DNA of 64,000 bases from a virus: positions 1 through 64,000 of IMG/VR virus record IMGVR_UViG_3300022468_000627, one strand, 5' to 3'. A program made the translations under genes and the position numbers. Under the pieces are notes generated by a model. The model did not search any database. It had not been told where the DNA came from and saw only the letters and a list, made by a program, of their open reading frames with translations. This document shows positions 54,544 to 61,928 of the stretch, one piece after another (position 1 is the first letter of the stretch; the number at the start of each line of letters is the position of its first letter).

Positions 54544-55187
54544 CGCCCGAACAGGTCCCACTTGCGCGCGGTCACGCGCTTGGGAAGGCGCATCCCGCTG
54601 TGCTCATTGCGGTCGCTGGGGAGCTCAAGGAAGATGAAATATTCGTCAAATTTGGTGCCCGTCAGCGAGTACGTGACGCCGGCCGGCGGCTCCAGCGCGC
54701 CGGGCGCCCAGGACAGGTTGCCGTTGGCGTCCACCGTCGGCAGATCGCCCTCGACGATGACCTCGCGGTTCTGCGGGTGCAGCCAGAAGCAGCGGGCGAT
54801 CTTCTCGGGCTTGAACAGCAGCCGTTCCTTGAACGAGCCGCGCTTGAGCGGCATGCTGAACACGTCAGTGCTGTTGAGCATGAGGATGCGGTCGTACTGG
54901 CCGCCCAGCTCCCACACAGGGCTCGACTGCGGGATGGTGAGCACCATGTCGCCAGCCTCATACGAGCCCGAGTTTTGCCACTGCAGCTGCACGGACTGGC
55001 TGGCAACGCCGACCACGGTGCTGACCGCCGGATCCCACAGCCGCCCCTTGCCCTGGCAGAGCGCATGCTTGGGGTCTGGCGCGCCCGAGTCCGGGCTGAC
55101 GCACGCGCAGCCGTAGGAGTGCCGCCAGGTGACGGCCTGGCCGATGTTCTCCAGGAAGCGGTCGAAGGCCGCAGCGTTGAAGCGCAT
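54540..55187 (-). CDS. Hypothetical head-tail joining protein (215 aa)
   Basis: ATG 55187 is coupled (TGATG) to the upstream stop; GTG 55190 is an alternative start. Its stop converges on the plus-strand gene (TTAG). Confidence 0.6.
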   Translation of the reverse strand: MRFNAAAFDRFLENIGQAVTWRHSYGCACVSPDSGAPDPKHALCQGKGRLWDPAVSTVVGVASQSVQLQWQNSGSYEAGDMVLTIPQSSPVWELGGQYDRILMLNSTDVFSMPLKRGSFKERLLFKPEKIARCFWLHPQNREVIVEGDLPTVDANGNLSWAPGALEPPAGVTYSLTGTKFDEYFIFLELPSDRNEHSGMRLPKRVTARKWDLFGR

Positions 55188-56293
55188 CACATCACCCCGA
55201 TGCGAATGCCATGGATGGCCGACATCAGCCCGCCGTTCGAGCCTTTGCCGCCGTGCAGGATGCGGTCAATCGTGTCGGAGTGCTTCTCCATGTCGTTGCT
55301 GATCGACTGGCTCAGGCCGTCCGCGCTGATCGAGCCGGACGCCGGCAGGAAAGCGTCCTCGATGATCTTGAGCGCGGCCTTCTTGTAGACCACGTCCAGC
55401 AGCTCGGGGTAGTTCGCCGGCACGTCCTTGAGGCCCGCCACGTAGGTGATTTGGATCGCCAACGGGATGGTGCGCCCCTGGCCGATGGCCTGCATGACGA
55501 AGGCGTTGAGCGGCGCCGCGAACGAGGTTGCGGACGGCACAAACTGGATCTGGCCGTACTTGCGGTCGGCGCGAATCCAGTCCAGCGGCAGGTCATAGTG
55601 CGCCGTGGGGCCGCCCGGGTAGGCGAAGCGCACGCGGCTGACCGACTGCAGCGGCTTGTTGCGGAGCTTGATCATGCCCCACTTGTCGTTGAACTGAAAA
55701 TCGCTGGGCTGGTAGTCGTAGCCCGGGTCCACGCCCCAAGGCTGGCCGTTGAGCGCGTCGATTTCGGCCTGGCTGGGCTCATCGGGGAAGAACGCCGTGG
55801 GCGCCAGCGGCACGCGCAGCTCGTGCGCTATCTCGGCCTCGGCGGCGCGCAGCTTGTCCCAAAGGAAGTCGTCGCCCACGTCCACGGTCGGCATGGCGCC
55901 GGCGGCCGCCAGCATGAGGCGGTCGCGGCGCAGCTTGGCCACGGCCAGCATGCGGTTCGGGAACAGCGCCGAGCCGGCTGCATTGCTGTCGTCGACCAGG
56001 TAGAGGCGGATGGTGCGCTCGTCGCGCCGGCCCTGGGTGGAGACGACGGTGTTCGTCAGCACGTACCAGGTCCAGGCCTGGGCGTTTTGCGCCTGCACCC
56101 ACACCGACGCGCTGGCGCCGCTCACGCCGGGGGTGTTCAGGGTGAGCGCGGCGTCAGCCGACCAGGTGCTGGTGTTGATCGTGTCGCCGGGGGCGAGCGC
56201 CAACCAATCGGACCAGTCGATGCGGTAGTCGAGGTAGGCGTCCTTGTCCTGCTGCGCCCACAGCCCCGTGCTGTCCTGGTTGAGTGTTGCCAT
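55187..56293 (-). CDS. Hypothetical head-tail adaptor-like protein (368 aa)
   Basis: ATG 56293 is preferred over the track TTG 56299. Position follows the repeat protein. Confidence 0.6.
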   Translation of the reverse strand: MATLNQDSTGLWAQQDKDAYLDYRIDWSDWLALAPGDTINTSTWSADAALTLNTPGVSGASASVWVQAQNAQAWTWYVLTNTVVSTQGRRDERTIRLYLVDDSNAAGSALFPNRMLAVAKLRRDRLMLAAAGAMPTVDVGDDFLWDKLRAAEAEIAHELRVPLAPTAFFPDEPSQAEIDALNGQPWGVDPGYDYQPSDFQFNDKWGMIKLRNKPLQSVSRVRFAYPGGPTAHYDLPLDWIRADRKYGQIQFVPSATSFAAPLNAFVMQAIGQGRTIPLAIQITYVAGLKDVPANYPELLDVVYKKAALKIIEDAFLPASGSISADGLSQSISNDMEKHSDTIDRILHGGKGSNGGLMSAIHGIRIGVM

Positions 56294-56295
56294 GG

Positions 56296-58530
56296 TCAAG
56301 CCTTGAATGAACGTCCAGCGACGATGGTAAATTCACGACCGCCAGCGCCCGCCCGGGCCCGGCGGGCCGGCGCGACGGTGGTGCGCGACACCCGTGCGGC
56401 CGCCGTGACTCCAGCCGATCGGGCGGCTTCCATGGTGAGCGTCCGGTCGGCCGGGGTGGCGTTCGCGACGAAGTAGACAGCGCCCCCGCCTGAGCCCTGC
56501 CGCTGCAAAGCCAGCGTGCCGGTGATCTTGTGCACTTGGAACACGCGCGCGCTGGCGCTCAACGGCTCAGCCACACCGCCATCCCCGGCCAGCTCGTGCG
56601 CCTGCTCAATCCCCCCAGCCGCTGCAGCCGCGGCCTGGGCCATGGCAGCGGCCAGCAGCTTGTGCACTTGGGCCAGCGCAGCATCGAGGCTTGCCGCCGT
56701 CTGCAGGCAGTCTGCCGCAGCGACTTCCTGGTTGCGGGTGACCCGCCCGGCGGCCGCCGCAGCATCCTGGGATGTGGCCGAGGAAGCCAGCTGGTGCACA
56801 CCCAGCACCACACCCGGCGCACAGGAAGCCGACTGGGCCGACCCGGCGCCGCGCAGGTTGTGGGCCAGCGCGATGACGCCGGCGCCAGAGGTCTGCGATT
56901 GGGTGGACGCCTGGCCGGCCATGCCCAGCGCCTGCGCCAGCGCGCCGGTCGACGAGATCGCCGCCGCCGACGAAGGAGCCCCGGCCAGGGGGTGCACCTG
57001 CCGGGCGACCCCGGCCCCGCTCGCGGCAGACTGCGCCGCAGGCGCGCCGGCCAGCACGTGAGCGACCACCACGGCTCCGGCAGCGGATGCGTGGGCTTCG
57101 GTCGCGGTGGCGCCAGCCAGGATGTTGACGGCGACCAGCGCGCCGGTGCCGGCTTGGTTTGCCTGGGAGACTCCGGCCCCGGCCAGCGCCTGCGCCTGGG
57201 TGATGGTGCCTGCACCAGCCGCGCCGGCCTGGGACGATGCGCCGCCGGCGAGCTGGTGCACCTGGGCCACCTGCCCGGGGCTGCACACCGGCTGCTGGGT
57301 GACGCTTGCGCCAGCGGTGGCCGTGGCGAGAACGACGACGCCGACCGACGAGGCAGCCGCCTGCTGGGCGCCCTGCCCGGCCAGGGCGTGCAGCTGCACG
57401 GCGGCGCTTGCCGATGACGCGCCGGCTTGGGAAGCCGACGCGGCGGCAAGCACCTGGGCCTGCCAAATGGCGCCGGCTGCAGCCGCGCCCGTCTGGGAGC
57501 AGGCCGCCGCCGCCAGCACGTGCGCCTGGGTTTCAGCACCGGTGCTGCTGGCGCTTGCCTGCTGGCACGCCGCGCCGGCCAGCAGCTGAACCTGCACCAC
57601 GGCCGCCGCGCCGCTGGAGGCGCCCTGCGAGGACGTGGCCCCAGCCAGCACAGCGGTCTGGCCGGCCGCGCCAGCCGTGGCCGACGCGGATTGCAGCGCC
57701 CCGGCGGCGGCGAGGATGTGCACCAGGGAGGCCGCGCCCGCGCCGCTGGCGGCCAACTGCTGGGCAGACGCTGCCGCCAAAGCCTGAATCTGGGTCACGG
57801 CGCCCGCCGCCGAGCCGGCCGCTTGAGTGGATCCGGCGCCGGCGATCGCGTGCACCTGGGCCGCGCCGCCCGTGCCTGCCGTGCTGGCCTGCGAAGACGC
57901 AGCGCCGAGCAGGGCCAGGGCCTGCACCACGGTGCCGGTTCCCGATGCGTTGGCCTGGGTCGATCCGGCGCCAACCAGCGCCACGGCCAAGGCCACGGCG
58001 CCAGCGCTGGAGGCGTTCCCCTGAGAGCTTGCCGAGCCTGCGGTGGCGTGCACCTGGCCGGCAACGCCGGTCGCAGAGGATGCCGTCTGGCTGGCGCCCG
58101 CTGCGGCCAGAACCTGCACGCCGGTAACGGCGCCGGTTGCCGACGACTGCGCCTGGCTGGAGGCCGCCGCCTGCAGGGCCTGGGTGAGCACGACGACGCC
58201 AGTGCTGGCCGTCTGAGCCTGAGAGGTGGCCGACACGGCCAGGGCGTGGACCTGGGTCTCGACGCCGGTGCCGGCAGCGTTGGCCTGGGTGCTGCCAGCC
58301 CCGGCCAGCAGCGCCACCTGGGAGGCCGTGCCGGTGCTGGTCGTGGCAGCCTGGGTGACGGACGTCCCGGTGAGGGAGATGGTCGACGGCGAGGCCGCCG
58401 CGTTCAGGAAGAAGGCCGCAGCCAGGTTCTTGACGAGCGGGCTTTTCGCCACCAGCCGGCTGGCGAGCCGGGAGGCGCCGCCGCGCCCGGTTCGGCCAGC
58501 CCCGGGGAAGCCTCGGCGCAGCCGGGCCAT
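56296..58530 (-). CDS. Virion-module protein made of 28 tandem 22-residue A/G/S/T/Q/V-rich repeats (744 aa)
   Basis: The frame was chosen by coupling to neighbours: the ATG lies 3 nt after the upstream TAA, and its own stop lies 2 nt before the next ATG. Residues 53-668 parse into 28 units of exactly 22 aa (e.g. LAGAGSTQANAAGTGVETQVHA). Confidence 0.7.
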   Translation of the reverse strand: MARLRRGFPGAGRTGRGGASRLASRLVAKSPLVKNLAAAFFLNAAASPSTISLTGTSVTQAATTSTGTASQVALLAGAGSTQANAAGTGVETQVHALAVSATSQAQTASTGVVVLTQALQAAASSQAQSSATGAVTGVQVLAAAGASQTASSATGVAGQVHATAGSASSQGNASSAGAVALAVALVGAGSTQANASGTGTVVQALALLGAASSQASTAGTGGAAQVHAIAGAGSTQAAGSAAGAVTQIQALAAASAQQLAASGAGAASLVHILAAAGALQSASATAGAAGQTAVLAGATSSQGASSGAAAVVQVQLLAGAACQQASASSTGAETQAHVLAAAACSQTGAAAAGAIWQAQVLAAASASQAGASSASAAVQLHALAGQGAQQAAASSVGVVVLATATAGASVTQQPVCSPGQVAQVHQLAGGASSQAGAAGAGTITQAQALAGAGVSQANQAGTGALVAVNILAGATATEAHASAAGAVVVAHVLAGAPAAQSAASGAGVARQVHPLAGAPSSAAAISSTGALAQALGMAGQASTQSQTSGAGVIALAHNLRGAGSAQSASCAPGVVLGVHQLASSATSQDAAAAAGRVTRNQEVAAADCLQTAASLDAALAQVHKLLAAAMAQAAAAAAGGIEQAHELAGDGGVAEPLSASARVFQVHKITGTLALQRQGSGGGAVYFVANATPADRTLTMEAARSAGVTAAARVSRTTVAPARRARAGAGGREFTIVAGRSFKA
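56527..58374 (-). repeat. Coding tandem repeat, 66-nt period x 28, diverged copies
   Basis: Hand parsing of the protein found no indels between units. All six frames are open here because of the composition. Confidence 0.8.
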
Positions 58531-58533
58531 GGC

Positions 58534-59346
58534 TTACCCGTTGACGACCAGCATGCGGCAGGTCGGCACGCCGGTGCTGGTGCTGTCGGCCTGCGCAACC
58601 AGCCACAGGCAGGACTCGGCCCACACCTGCGGCGCGCCGATCATGTCCCAGGCCTGGGCGTCTACGGCGTTCGCCACCCGCACGTCGAACTCGGCCAAGC
58701 GCCGGGCCAGGATGACGTTGAACGCGCCGGCCGTGGCAACCGTGCCGCCGACCGTCACGCTCTCGATCTTCTGCACGCCCTTGTCGCCAGCCTGCAGCGG
58801 CATGGCGATGACGCGCGGCGTGGTGAAGCCCGACAGGGACGCCGTGGCGCCGGTGGTGCGCCCGGTGGCGCCGGTCTCGTTGGTGTAGTTCACCGACACG
58901 GTGGTGGCCGTGGCCGAGAACGTGGTGGTCAGCTCCAGCAGGATCTCGCAGTCAGCGAAGTCCGTGCCGCCCGGCACGCGGCCGGTGATCGACGGCTGGC
59001 TGGCGAACGTGGTCGTGGCGAGGGCCGTGGCCGACACGGCGCCAGCGCCCCAGAGCCGGTCGTACAGGATGGCGCCGCCGGTCACGCTGTTGCGGAAGTT
59101 CGCCGCCGCCAGGTAGCCCGTGGCACTGGCGCCCAGTGCGTTGAGCAGAGGCGCGCCGGCCGTGGCGTCGGTGAACAGCACGCCGGCCGCTGTGTTGCCG
59201 ACCGCCATCGTGCCGGCGCCAGGGTTGCCGGCCGTGCCCCACAGCGAGAACTGCTGCGCCGCCACCGAGGTGACGGCGGCGGTCTTGCGGATGGAAGCCC
59301 ATTGCCGGGCGGCCGCAAACCAGCCGTCGGCGGTAGTGATCGCCAT
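58534..59346 (-). CDS. Hypothetical virion protein (270 aa)
   Basis: A/T/G-rich beta-type sequence. Tightly packed with its neighbours. Confidence 0.6.
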   Translation of the reverse strand: MAITTADGWFAAARQWASIRKTAAVTSVAAQQFSLWGTAGNPGAGTMAVGNTAAGVLFTDATAGAPLLNALGASATGYLAAANFRNSVTGGAILYDRLWGAGAVSATALATTTFASQPSITGRVPGGTDFADCEILLELTTTFSATATTVSVNYTNETGATGRTTGATASLSGFTTPRVIAMPLQAGDKGVQKIESVTVGGTVATAGAFNVILARRLAEFDVRVANAVDAQAWDMIGAPQVWAESCLWLVAQADSTSTGVPTCRMLVVNG

Positions 59347-59352
59347 GGCCTA

Positions 59353-59736
59353 TCAGGTGGGCTGGTTGGACGTGTAGGTCAGCTGCGGGAAGTTGACCGT
59401 GTTGCCGGACGTGATGACCTGGTCGGTGGTTTCGTCCGTCACCCACAGCACCTTGGCCGAGCCGTCGGTGAACGCGATGTGCAGGTTCGGCGAGGCGCCA
59501 GACCCGGCCGAGGCCGTCGCACTCTTGCCGGCGGCCGTGGTCAGCACGCGATTGTTGCCGGACGAGGTGATCGTGTAGTCACCGGCCACCATGGTGACAT
59601 CGGCCAGCAGGTTGCTGACCACGGTCGCGTAGCTGTCGCCGGCCGTATAGGCCTTGATCAGCAGCATGTGCGTGGCCGCGTTCTTGATGGCGTTCAGGCC
59701 ACCATCCAGCACATCGGAATGAACGAACTTCGCCAT
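59353..59736 (-). CDS. Hypothetical virion protein (127 aa)
   Basis: TAGGAG SD. First gene after the terminator plus junction motif. Confidence 0.6.
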   Translation of the reverse strand: MAKFVHSDVLDGGLNAIKNAATHMLLIKAYTAGDSYATVVSNLLADVTMVAGDYTITSSGNNRVLTTAAGKSATASAGSGASPNLHIAFTDGSAKVLWVTDETTDQVITSGNTVNFPQLTYTSNQPT

Positions 59737-59771
59737 TTCGGCTCCTAAATGAAACTTTTGGTAACAGTGAT

Positions 59772-60473: not shown

Positions 60474-61928
60474 TCAGTTGAAGGGCTTCCACTTCGCGCC
60501 GCTGGGCAGGATGTTCTTGATCACGGCGTGGTGGCGACGCTTGGTGATGCGCAGGTAGCCGAACATCAGCTGGGCCCAGGGGATGACCGCGGCGTTGGTC
60601 GGGTACAGCGGGAACTTCATCATGGGCAGGAGCTGGCGCCAGTTGATGGCATGGTCGCCGGGGCTCATGTTCAGGATGTAGGACTTGGTGGTGCCCGGGA
60701 TGTCGCGGTTCAGGTCCACGTAGGTGGTGGTCGCGCCGGCGCAGGCCACGCGAACCATCTGGCGGAAGTCGCTCGGCGTGTTGGTGCCGCTCAGGCGGCT
60801 GCGATAGATCGCGTAGCCGGTTTCCTGGGCGCCAGCGGAGCGGGTGATGGTCAGGGTCACCTTCTTGCCAGCGGCCACGGCCACCTGGGCGCTGATCACG
60901 CCGGTGGACTGGCCCTTGGAGTTGAGGCCGGTCACCAGGTAGTAGTAGTTGCCGGCGCGGCCAGCGGTGAAGTTGCTCGACGCATCGCTCACGGTGGCGT
61001 CGGTGGCCAGCGTGGGCTTGAGGCCGTCGTTGGCTGCGGCCAGGGTCGGGTAGGTCACCTGGAAGGGCACGGTCTGGTCGCCGTCGTTGATGAACACGTC
61101 GTTCATCGTCTTGACGTCACCCCAGGAGGTGCGGATGCCCACCACGGGGGAGCCCAGCGAGATACCGCCGTTCGGCACGTTGTTCAGGCTCACGCGGAAA
61201 GCGGGGTCCAGACCGGTGTCGAAATCGGCCTGCACCAGCTGCGACATGAACAGGTGGGTCGGCGTGCCGAAGTTGTCGCGCTTGGAGACCTGGGCGGCAG
61301 CGGCGTTCACCAGGTTGATCGAGGCCAGGGAATTGGCGTCGGCGTCCAGGATGTTGCCGGTATCGACCTGGCCGGCGTTCACGCCAGCGAGGATCTGGGC
61401 GTAGATGCCGTCGAATTCGGTCGGCACCACAGCGCTGTCACCCTCGAAGCTCAGGTACTCGGCATCGGTCAGCAGCTGCTTGGCGCCGGCCTGCTGTTCG
61501 ATGGCTTCCGAGTTGGCGATGTTGTTGCCCAGGGTGGACACCAGCGAGACCTGACGCTTGGTCATCAGGTACTTCACCAGGCCCACGCGGCGAGCGTAGG
61601 AACCGGTGCTCTCGTCGATGACGCCGGTTTCGGTGTTGGTCGAGCCGCCCAGGAAGCCGCCGACGCCGGACTGTTCAGTCCATTCGTCCACGGTCGCGCC
61701 AGCGCCAGTCTTGGCCAGTTCGTTGAACAGCTTGAAGTGCTTGTTCTCCTGGATGGTGGCCTGCATCGTGCGATCCAGGGACTGGATGCGGAACGAGCTG
61801 CCACCGACCAGGGTGGAGGTGTCGGTGCCGTAACCAGCCGTCAGAGCCTTTTGCAGCTCGGCGATCGCGGTACCTTCCATGGAGCCAGTGGTGGATGCAC
61901 CGGCCGCGAGTTCAGGCAAATTGAACAT
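60474..61928 (-). CDS. Major capsid protein (484 aa)
   Basis: Follows the protease and scaffold genes. Its size and composition fit an HK97-fold MCP of the large (DUF5309/SU10-like) type (memory). Confidence 0.8.
   Translation of the reverse strand: MFNLPELAAGASTTGSMEGTAIAELQKALTAGYGTDTSTLVGGSSFRIQSLDRTMQATIQENKHFKLFNELAKTGAGATVDEWTEQSGVGGFLGGSTNTETGVIDESTGSYARRVGLVKYLMTKRQVSLVSTLGNNIANSEAIEQQAGAKQLLTDAEYLSFEGDSAVVPTEFDGIYAQILAGVNAGQVDTGNILDADANSLASINLVNAAAAQVSKRDNFGTPTHLFMSQLVQADFDTGLDPAFRVSLNNVPNGGISLGSPVVGIRTSWGDVKTMNDVFINDGDQTVPFQVTYPTLAAANDGLKPTLATDATVSDASSNFTAGRAGNYYYLVTGLNSKGQSTGVISAQVAVAAGKKVTLTITRSAGAQETGYAIYRSRLSGTNTPSDFRQMVRVACAGATTTYVDLNRDIPGTTKSYILNMSPGDHAINWRQLLPMMKFPLYPTNAAVIPWAQLMFGYLRITKRRHHAVIKNILPSGAKWKPFN

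Follow-up and report, generated by a model that had tools for sequence, protein, structure and literature searches.

The stretch of viral DNA analysed here comprises the first 64,000 nucleotides of IMG/VR record IMGVR_UViG_3300022468_000627, and we call it the window throughout. It belongs to a myovirus genome of ~92 kb in the PHB04 / Dolphis / Touem01 group. Our subject is an open reading frame (ORF) for a 744-amino-acid (aa) protein that consists largely of tandem 22-residue repeats, together with two genes that accompany it, one for a 127-aa protein and one for a head-to-tail adaptor that carries a Gp77 collar domain. Along the minus strand, the genes are arranged in the order major head protein, 76-aa ORF, 127-aa ORF, 270-aa ORF, repeat gene and 370-aa adaptor gene, beyond which further neck and tail genes extend as far as the sheath (Table 1). 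An initial annotation, made from the DNA alone, had assigned the repeat protein to the virion module as a fibre-type protein and had placed its gene between head genes and neck/adaptor genes; the gene context supports the first statement, and gene annotation bears out the second, the adaptor being the head-to-tail adaptor. We refer to the repeat protein as the rope and to the 127-aa protein as the bead, after the roles that we propose for them below.

Table 1. Features of the repeat-gene locus, in positions of the window.
Feature	Position	Strand	Basis or remark
Repeat ORF, proposed rope (string)	56296..58530	-	744 aa; sole frame open end to end
N-terminal non-repeat part, 52 residues	58375..58530	-	Arg/Gly-rich up to residue 26
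28 tandem 22-residue units, residues 53-668	56527..58374	-	Register parse; collinear with units 3-30 of L034
C-terminal tail, 76 residues, and stop codon	56296..56526	-	Residues 669-744; ends ...RSFKA
127-aa partner, proposed bead (whisker / Fiber-I / garland-like dimer)	59353..59736	-	Linkage, fold model
Head-to-tail adaptor with N-terminal Gp77 domain, proposed rope anchor	55187..56299	-	370 aa
Gp77 (PF23148) Ig-like (immunoglobulin-like) collar domain, adaptor residues ~16-103	55991..56254	-	64.5 bits, cutoff 27
Major head protein	60474..61928	-	phrog_752, E 8e-88; marks start of late structural operon with cassette
270-aa ORF between bead and rope genes	58534..59346	-	No Pfam or PHROG match

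The periodicity of the rope is strict. A register parse confirmed that the 28 units described in the initial annotation follow one another without a single insertion or deletion. Self-identity of the protein is 0.379 at a lag of 22 residues and 0.37-0.41 at lags of 44-110, as compared with 0.217 at the best lag that is not a multiple of 22; across 500 shuffled sequences, the highest value at any lag averaged 0.196 (standard deviation 0.006) and peaked at 0.216. The periodicity of the array is thus far above chance. The conserved columns are L1 (23/28 units), A2 (22/28), G3 (18/28), Q8 (25/28), G15 (24/28), Q19 (18/28) and H21 (14/28). The motif first proposed for the unit misplaces one glycine, which is conserved at position 15 rather than 14, and the corrected motif reads L-A-G-x-x-S-x-Q-x(6)-G-x(3)-Q-x-H-x. 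Each unit also holds an internal 11-residue half-repeat, in which Q8 is matched by Q19 and N10 by H21. At the DNA level, unit copies are on average 51% identical to each other (maximum 70%), neighbouring copies are no closer than remote ones, and Tandem Repeats Finder reported no 66-bp array. For these three reasons we agree with the earlier view that this is an old array held in register and not a recent variable-number tandem repeat. The array has the marks neither of recent tandem duplication nor of simple low complexity, and its units are positionally orthologous to those of the related phage L034.

The initial annotation had also described all six frames of the gene as open. We found instead that the other five frames hold 3-15 stops each between 56296 and 58530, and that frame -0 alone is open throughout. 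Between the window and the orthologous L034 array, the proportions of differences at codon positions 1, 2 and 3 are 0.38, 0.30 and 0.59, and there are 161 synonymous codon changes. Because of this third-position excess and these synonymous changes, comparison of the two arrays identifies the frame as coding and under purifying selection. The G+C content at third codon positions of the repeat gene is 0.84. Long ORFs in other frames, on either strand, overlap the array within 56500-59750, examples being 57427-59748 (+, 773 aa) and 57533-58624 (-, 363 aa); they are spurious by-products of the 74% G+C content and the repeat, and could mislead gene callers. The repeat gene is tightly packed, with its ATG 4 nucleotides past the upstream stop and its TGA overlapping the downstream TTG. 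An alternative in-frame GTG at 58452 (codon 27) would give an N-terminus of V27-A-K-S-P-L-V (translated as M-A-K-S-P-L-V), and orthologues begin with M-x-T-P-L-F-D in alignment with this codon. Neither the ATG nor the GTG is preceded by a clear Shine-Dalgarno sequence. By this alignment the first 26 codons may be untranslated, and the array is unaffected by the choice of start.

Comparison with related phages separates what is fixed in the array from what is free. The window has 28 units, L034 has 30 and L007 has 20. Units 1-28 of the window pair unit for unit with units 3-30 of L034, at ~10.7 identical residues of 22 as compared with 7.9 for random pairs of units, and length changes between orthologous arrays always involve whole units (multiples of 22 residues). 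The L007 array differs from that of the window by whole-unit gaps and by an insert of ~150 residues after the first L007 unit. This insert (residues 64-212 of the 721-aa rope orthologue at L007:12378-14543 (+)) is globular and weakly resembles an F5/8-type-C (galactose-binding-like) domain (E 4e-4, below the Pfam cutoff), a resemblance from which we suspect that a module for ligand binding lies close to where the fibre ends freely. The array had been called length-constrained, with comparison of repeat number among relatives named as a check. That comparison does not sustain the claim in its original form, as the counts of 20, 28 and 30 in these relatives and of ~5 to 32 in the wider family attest; copy number is unconstrained, but the 22-residue register is kept and conservation is position-specific. 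Across the orthologues, then, it is the register that is constrained and not the copy number.

The two ends of the rope also differ. The C-terminal tails are homologous, ending in ...RSFKA in the window, ...RSFGA in L034, ...RYFKA in L007 and ...TFKFNA in L018. Within the array, conservation is highest in the C-proximal units. Since the collar gene, moreover, abuts this end, the sequences suggest that the C-terminus is anchored and the N-terminus free. Directly after the last unit, L007, L034, P0016 and P0050 carry the motif L-x-G-D-W/Y-V-x-x-G-Y/W-V-x-x-G-Y/W; it is absent from the window, where I-T-G-T-L-A-L-Q stands in its place.

To place the rope in a wider family, we used an exhaustive search of 1.84 billion representative proteins, which yielded at least 250 clusters at E<=1e-3, 111 of them at E<=1e-10. 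The family consensus of the unit is L-[ATV]-G-A-x-S-x-Q-A-N-T-S-S-T-G-A-I-T-Q-T-H-V. Units are spaced by exactly 22 residues in 1158 of 1318 adjacent pairs, the chief variant being +2, and proteins have a median of 9 units (range about 5 to 32), the window holding the longest uninterrupted run seen. Conserved residues fall at alternate positions, S6, Q8, N10 and S12 in the first half of the unit and G15, I17, Q19, H21 and L1 in the second, so that, in each of two putative beta-strands, they would share one face. The commonest architecture has an N-terminal LamG-type domain of ~245 aa (Laminin_G_3 confirmed in P0021). The repeats also occur in very large multi-domain proteins, with InPase plus DarA_N (P0021), with the tail terminator domain PF23840 (P0027) and with Gp77 domains (P0008). 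By these fusions, the repeat module is highly mobile among virion proteins. Across P0021, P0051, P0027 and P0042, the settings of the 22-residue repeats comprise giant LamG-repeat-InPase-DarA_N polyvalent proteins, the tail-terminator fusion and, in P0042, a position N-terminal to what looks, judged by eye, like a distal-tail or baseplate-type domain. The initial annotation had not recognised the repeat family, and no library names it: the repeat has no match in Pfam, PHROG or the PDB. Sequence searches of the PDB with the window protein, with P0013, with the repeat-family profile and with the bead-family profile gave nothing meaningful, tblastn of the window protein against 50,697 cultured-phage records gave no match, and searches for related loci with the repeat alignment, which offers no conserved stretch, with P0013 and with the window protein in IMG/VR returned none.

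The bead gene accompanies the rope gene in nearly every case. All five contigs recovered via the repeat protein, which are siphovirus-like and podovirus-like, encode a bead homologue (36-77% identity), and across these phages the capsid families are unrelated (phrog_752, PF05065, PF13252). When loci were retrieved with the bead instead, a repeat ORF was present in 23 of 27 loci from IMG/VR, downstream on the same strand, and in 23 of 27 loci from bacterial genomes. Pooling the three sets, bead and repeat gene are both present in 51 of 59 loci, with the repeat ORF nearly always on the same strand and no more than about 6 kb downstream. The exceptions in IMG/VR are three loci whose sequence ends 1.0-1.4 kb after the bead gene (L008, L010, L028) and one weak match at 33% identity (L033); those in bacterial genomes are one that ends ~1.2 kb after the bead gene (L061) and three divergent ones at 37-54% identity (L062, L063, L067). 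L033 and these three are the bead matches of greatest divergence. Bead and rope are therefore near-obligately linked. The bead family is itself large, with 1041 clusters at 90% identity in metagenomes, all of them unnamed and none with a Pfam domain or PHROG match. The bead had no tblastn match among the 50,697 cultured-phage records. Members do occur in prophage-like regions of cultured Betaproteobacteria, namely Nitrosospira briensis Nsp8, Nitrosospira spp. NpAV, Nsp11 and Nl5, Nitrosovibrio tenuis Nv1 and Massilia agrisoli.

The bead is also far better conserved than its surroundings. Between the window and L007 or L034, the bead is 92-93% identical, and the head and adaptor proteins are 48-58% identical. 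The third codon positions of the bead gene differ at 39%, and on this account the sequences point to very strong purifying selection rather than recent transfer. We modelled the bead with AlphaFold2 (AF2) from a 54-sequence alignment, at a predicted local distance difference test score (pLDDT) of 87.6 and a predicted template-modelling score (pTM) of 0.81. The model has N-terminal helices followed by a beta-sandwich. Its three best Foldseek matches in the PDB are chains of phage 7-7-1 (9rkv_A), Bas63 (9mt4_K) and Sf14 (9c39_K), with probabilities of 1.00, 0.97 and 0.97, template-modelling (TM) scores of 0.47-0.58 and E values of 0.03-0.08. Orthologues in Felix O1 identify the K chains of Bas63 and Sf14 as the whisker protein and the neighbouring 166-aa gene as that of the deposited "Collar protein". 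The 7-7-1 chain appears, by its length and the description in the paper, to be the garland protein gp014, a chain-forming homodimer.

The third component is the Gp77 domain at the N-terminus of the adaptor. Residues ~100-370 of the adaptor match PHB04 gp017, the "head-to-tail adaptor" of ST4 and Jeremy, and SPO1 gp6.3. Gp77 is above threshold in the L007 and L034 adaptors; in the PHB04 adaptor it was not detected, and the ~100 N-terminal residues there are not detectably related. Bordetella phage PHB04 is the nearest annotated relative of the window, and in it the head protein is followed by two small ORFs and then by the homologue of the 370-aa protein, with no counterpart of the 127-, 270- or 744-aa genes. 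Since PHB04 lacks bead, rope and Gp77, whereas the window, L007 and L034 have Gp77, the three are, on sequence comparison, present or absent together in this phage group. The start of a Gp77 ORF lies no more than a few bases from the point where the repeat ORF ends in the window, L007, L013, L017-19, L021, L030 and L034. A single protein of L005/P0008 combines repeats, on the N-terminal side, with Gp77 domains, and in L018 a 158-aa rope of five units is followed by a stand-alone 106-aa Gp77 protein, a minimal version of the arrangement in phage GP4. Rope and collar are in this way continuous or adjacent at the genetic level, and physical attachment would be expected from it.

Proteins of the bead's fold class have been seen in a particular kind of assembly. 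In T4 gp8, A511 gp105, GP4 Fiber I and the whiskers of Sf14 and Bas63, dimers are arranged end to end on an extended polypeptide, and this string passes through a groove of each monomer, completing an incomplete sandwich (PMC12609058, PMC10811340). The garland dimers of Milano (gp125/127) and 7-7-1 (gp014) have the same fold and form similar chains, for which the string was not identified (PMC12609058, PMC10811340). The string of Bas63 is the N-terminal rope of its Ig-like collar, and carries two dimers (PMC12609058). In GP4, the string is a rope protein distinct from the collar gp77, with which it interlocks, and it holds five dimers (PMC12609058); Fiber-I is deposited in 8JOU as 10 chains of gp80, or 5 dimers. 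The Gp77 family, PF23148, is the GP4 "fiber-tail adaptor", a homologue of the Bas63 collar (PMC12609058). GP4 gp79 and gp78 are both absent from the sequence-assigned PDB chains. We noticed that gp79 (AXG67774; L036:10048-11025 (-)), which lies between gp80 and gp77, is a Gly-rich protein of 325 aa with a periodicity of 10, 20 and 40 residues, not 22; this makes it a putative candidate for the GP4 rope.

The solved whiskers supply a measure against which the repeat can be set. In Bas63 and Felix O1, the globular part of the collar has begun by Cys52, a residue engaged in a disulfide between collars, so the rope is at most ~45-50 residues long for four whisker monomers. This amounts to ~11 rope residues per monomer and ~22 per dimer. 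The rope in the window has a 22-residue unit, an 11-residue half-repeat and two predicted strands, in numerical agreement with the ~22 residues per dimer of Bas63. As an independent string for the same measure, 7-7-1 gp013 was uninformative, having no periodicity.

We think it somewhat probable that the 744-aa protein is a giant rope which binds about one dimer of the 127-aa protein per unit, on a bead-on-string fibre anchored at the neck. What is observed here is the repeat in its frame, the repeat family, the fold class of the bead and the linkage among the bead, rope and collar genes; how the rope would be threaded, how many beads it would take, where the fibre would sit and what it would do are modelled on Bas63, Sf14, GP4 and A511. 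The C-terminal tail would dock on the Gp77 collar domain fused to the adaptor N-terminus, and we propose that the two interlock. The adaptor is taken by analogy to be a dodecamer, so that a virion could carry up to 12 fibres. From this anchor the 28 repeats would extend outward as a stretched chain, each unit offering two 11-residue strand segments (S6-x-Q8-x-N10-x-S12 and G15-x-I/V17-x-Q19-x-H21-x-L1). One segment would fill the groove of one bead subunit and complete its beta-sandwich, one unit would carry one dimer, and one rope would carry about 28 dimers (56 subunits). Repeat number would then set the length of the fibre, the rope acting as a ruler for the number of dimers; at ~5-7 nm per extended 22-residue unit, we estimate ~150-200 nm. 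In relatives, the free N-terminal end can bear a sugar-binding-type domain (LamG or F5/8-C-like). The window protein has none, and any binding would thus come from the beads. The likely role, again by analogy, would be reversible attachment to the host surface or to a filament, or bracing of head and tail. Among the possibilities raised in the initial annotation, a whisker and a ruler-like element would fit this neck string best, and a neck fibre is to be preferred to a head fibre, given that the proposed Gp77 anchor is part of the head-to-tail adaptor.

Several observations weigh against this model. The bead is assigned through its fold, at the modest TM scores and marginal E values given above, and GP4 Fiber-I (8JOU) is outside the top 50 fold matches of its model. 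None of the 54 bead-family members matched PF23140, the family of GP4 gp80, in Pfam at E<=10, where they gave just weak RicinB/CBM_X2 noise, and hhalign of the bead family against gp80 found no similarity (probability 4%). Likewise, the repeat has no sequence or profile similarity to any solved rope, and hhalign found none between it and GP4 gp79. The model also implies a heavy load, with 56 beads on each rope and as many as ~670 on one virion. Extra genes sit between the bead and rope genes. Finally, Gp77 was detected in just 1 of the 27 prophage loci of bacterial genomes. Because Gp77 is so seldom detected there, bead and rope are, from the loci compared, the conserved core of the system, and the anchor varies.

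A last point against the rope model comes from the predicted structure of the repeat, which calls for no partner. An AF2 monomer model built for 8 units (pLDDT 69, pTM 0.62) contains beta structure throughout and gives each unit exactly two strands, a result compatible with the rope model too, though not diagnostic of it. Its best viral fold matches are phage proteins annotated as "Curlin associated" (TM 0.53-0.58, probability 0.8-0.9), and its weak matches in the PDB, none of them at E<=1e-3, are all beta-helices (CsgA, SufD, ice-binding proteins). On its own, then, the repeat is predicted to form a curli-like solenoid with two strands per coil. The protein could accordingly be a self-folding beta-solenoid rod that serves as a fibre shaft, with one 22-residue, two-strand coil per unit, a rise of ~4.8 Å, a length of ~13 nm and internal Gln/Asn/His ladders, and the 127-aa protein would then be an accessory such as a chaperone, cap, tip or lateral decoration. 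CsgA has Q/N ladders, which the pair Q8 and Q19, 11 residues apart, resembles; like the unit described here, its repeats are ~22 residues long, with two strands each and conserved Gln/Asn at fixed spacing. Unlike CsgA, the window protein lacks a Curlin_rpt Pfam match, is not a secreted amyloid subunit and is linked to bead and collar genes. The confidence of the model is moderate, and AlphaFold is inclined to stack beta-prone repeats when no partner is supplied. A solenoid, moreover, leaves unexplained the linkage to a whisker fold, the abutting or fused Gp77, and a constraint on the bead far above that on the capsid. We regard a self-folding rod as the main rival of the rope model, though an unlikely one. 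The initial annotation had named a solenoid among its options; the monomer model suggests as much, but the genomic evidence favours a string completed by a partner protein.

A conventional homotrimeric fibre shaft (a triple beta-helix or beta-spiral), on which relatives would bear N-terminal receptor-binding domains and for which the 127-aa protein would be an assembly or attachment factor, seems to us improbable. Strictly phased short repeats are typical of such shafts, some family members have LamG or F5/8-C-like domains, and some lie in the tail-fibre regions of podovirus-like contigs, yet the window protein matches no tail-fibre or tailspike shaft family in Pfam, PHROGs or the PDB and has no trimerisation or chaperone domain. 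That the array is merely compositionally biased, high-GC sequence or a wrong frame with no specific structure, as its 32% Ala, the local GC content of 74% and the long ORFs in other frames might suggest, is effectively refuted by position-specific conservation over at least 250 clusters, the collinear L034 array with its synonymous excess, and the single open frame.

Returning to the rope model, we compared the locus with the closest known bead-on-string systems. Bas63, Sf14 and Felix O1 (9MT4, 9C39; PMC12609058, PMC11821841) resemble it in having a small protein whose incomplete beta-sandwich is accompanied by an N-terminal helix, to which the 127-aa protein is a structural match. They resemble it also in their Ig-like collar, a homologue of GP4 gp77 that sits level with the adaptor in the neck of a myovirus. 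The Bas63 rope is N-terminal to its collar, and the proposed rope is likewise fused N-terminally in P0008 and encoded by the adjacent gene in the window. The Bas63 rope, however, extends from the collar over ~45 residues and holds 2 dimers, whereas the one proposed here is a separate 744-aa protein of 28 units; the collar domain of the window phage is fused to the adaptor itself, and no sequence similarity of bead or rope was detected. With GP4 (a Ralstonia podophage; gp80 PF23140, gp77 PF23148, 8JOU), the locus shares the order of bead, intervening genes and collar (gp80, gp79/78, gp77), and the Gp77 domain of the window is a true Pfam match. It differs in that the 127-aa family has no PF23140 match and in that GP4 is a podovirus with fibres at the tail. 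The BW3TFN connectors of T4 gp8 and A511 gp105 and the garlands of Milano and 7-7-1 belong to the same bead fold class, 7-7-1 gp014 being the top match. These, by contrast, are short chains of about three dimers at the baseplate with no tandem-repeat string described, and their string is part of a wedge protein (A511) or unidentified (Milano).

Bead-on-string whiskers and fibres were first seen by cryo-electron microscopy in 2023-2025 (GP4, Sf14, Bas63 and the Milano/7-7-1 garlands), with 2-5 dimers resolved, and in several of the known systems the identity of the string is unclear. The architecture itself is already described; what would be new here is a dedicated, repeat-encoded and much longer string, and the fact that both partners come from unannotated families. 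We also entertain a more general proposal, which we find plausible but would stop short of calling probable. Under this proposal, each 22-residue repeat encodes in its sequence the address of one bead dimer, and the locus represents a class of templated heteropolymer fibres that is widespread but unannotated. The repeat protein would be its ruler, for ~5 to ~30 dimers and for lengths of up to ~150-200 nm in the phage of the window. As sequence families, both partners would be new and without kinship to the solved whisker and Fiber-I proteins; they are abundant among environmental phages and among the prophages of Betaproteobacteria, nitrifying ones included, yet absent from every cultured phage genome searched. 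If the rope reading is right, the string of such a fibre can have a protein of its own, in which the succession of tandem repeats specifies the bead-binding sites, and the rule that 22 residues equal one dimer could be used to find ropes in genomes and to predict fibre length. It would also give a function to two large families of hypothetical proteins, the bead family of over 1,000 clusters and the rope family of at least 250, and would account for a strict register alongside a drifting copy number. A modular scaffold whose length is set by repeat number would be of use in studies of fibre assembly and phage adsorption, for which the prophages in cultured Nitrosospira, Nitrosovibrio and Massilia are possible experimental systems.

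As for the rest of the locus, the major head protein is 48-50% identical to those of PHB04, L007 and L034. Kinship with the head-fibre phage 7-7-1 was considered and rejected, the major head protein grouping with the ~90-kb myoviruses PHB04, Dolphis and Touem01. No tRNA or tmRNA gene was found in the whole window (1-64000), unlike in Felix O1-type myoviruses of similar size. At the position of the 270-aa ORF, L007 and L034 have three unrelated genes of 212, 312/313 and 128 aa (phrog_13925 and phrog_6034, families of unknown function), to which BLAST found no similarity. That this ORF might be a split-off copy of the N-terminal LamG-like domain of the family was rejected, also for want of similarity. 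Small genes between bead and rope are kept across unrelated contigs elsewhere, L002:7948-8250 and L006:7080-7382 having 78% identity and L002:8247-8684 and L004:4648-5127 having 43%, and judging from such loci the mobile cassette may hold more than two genes.

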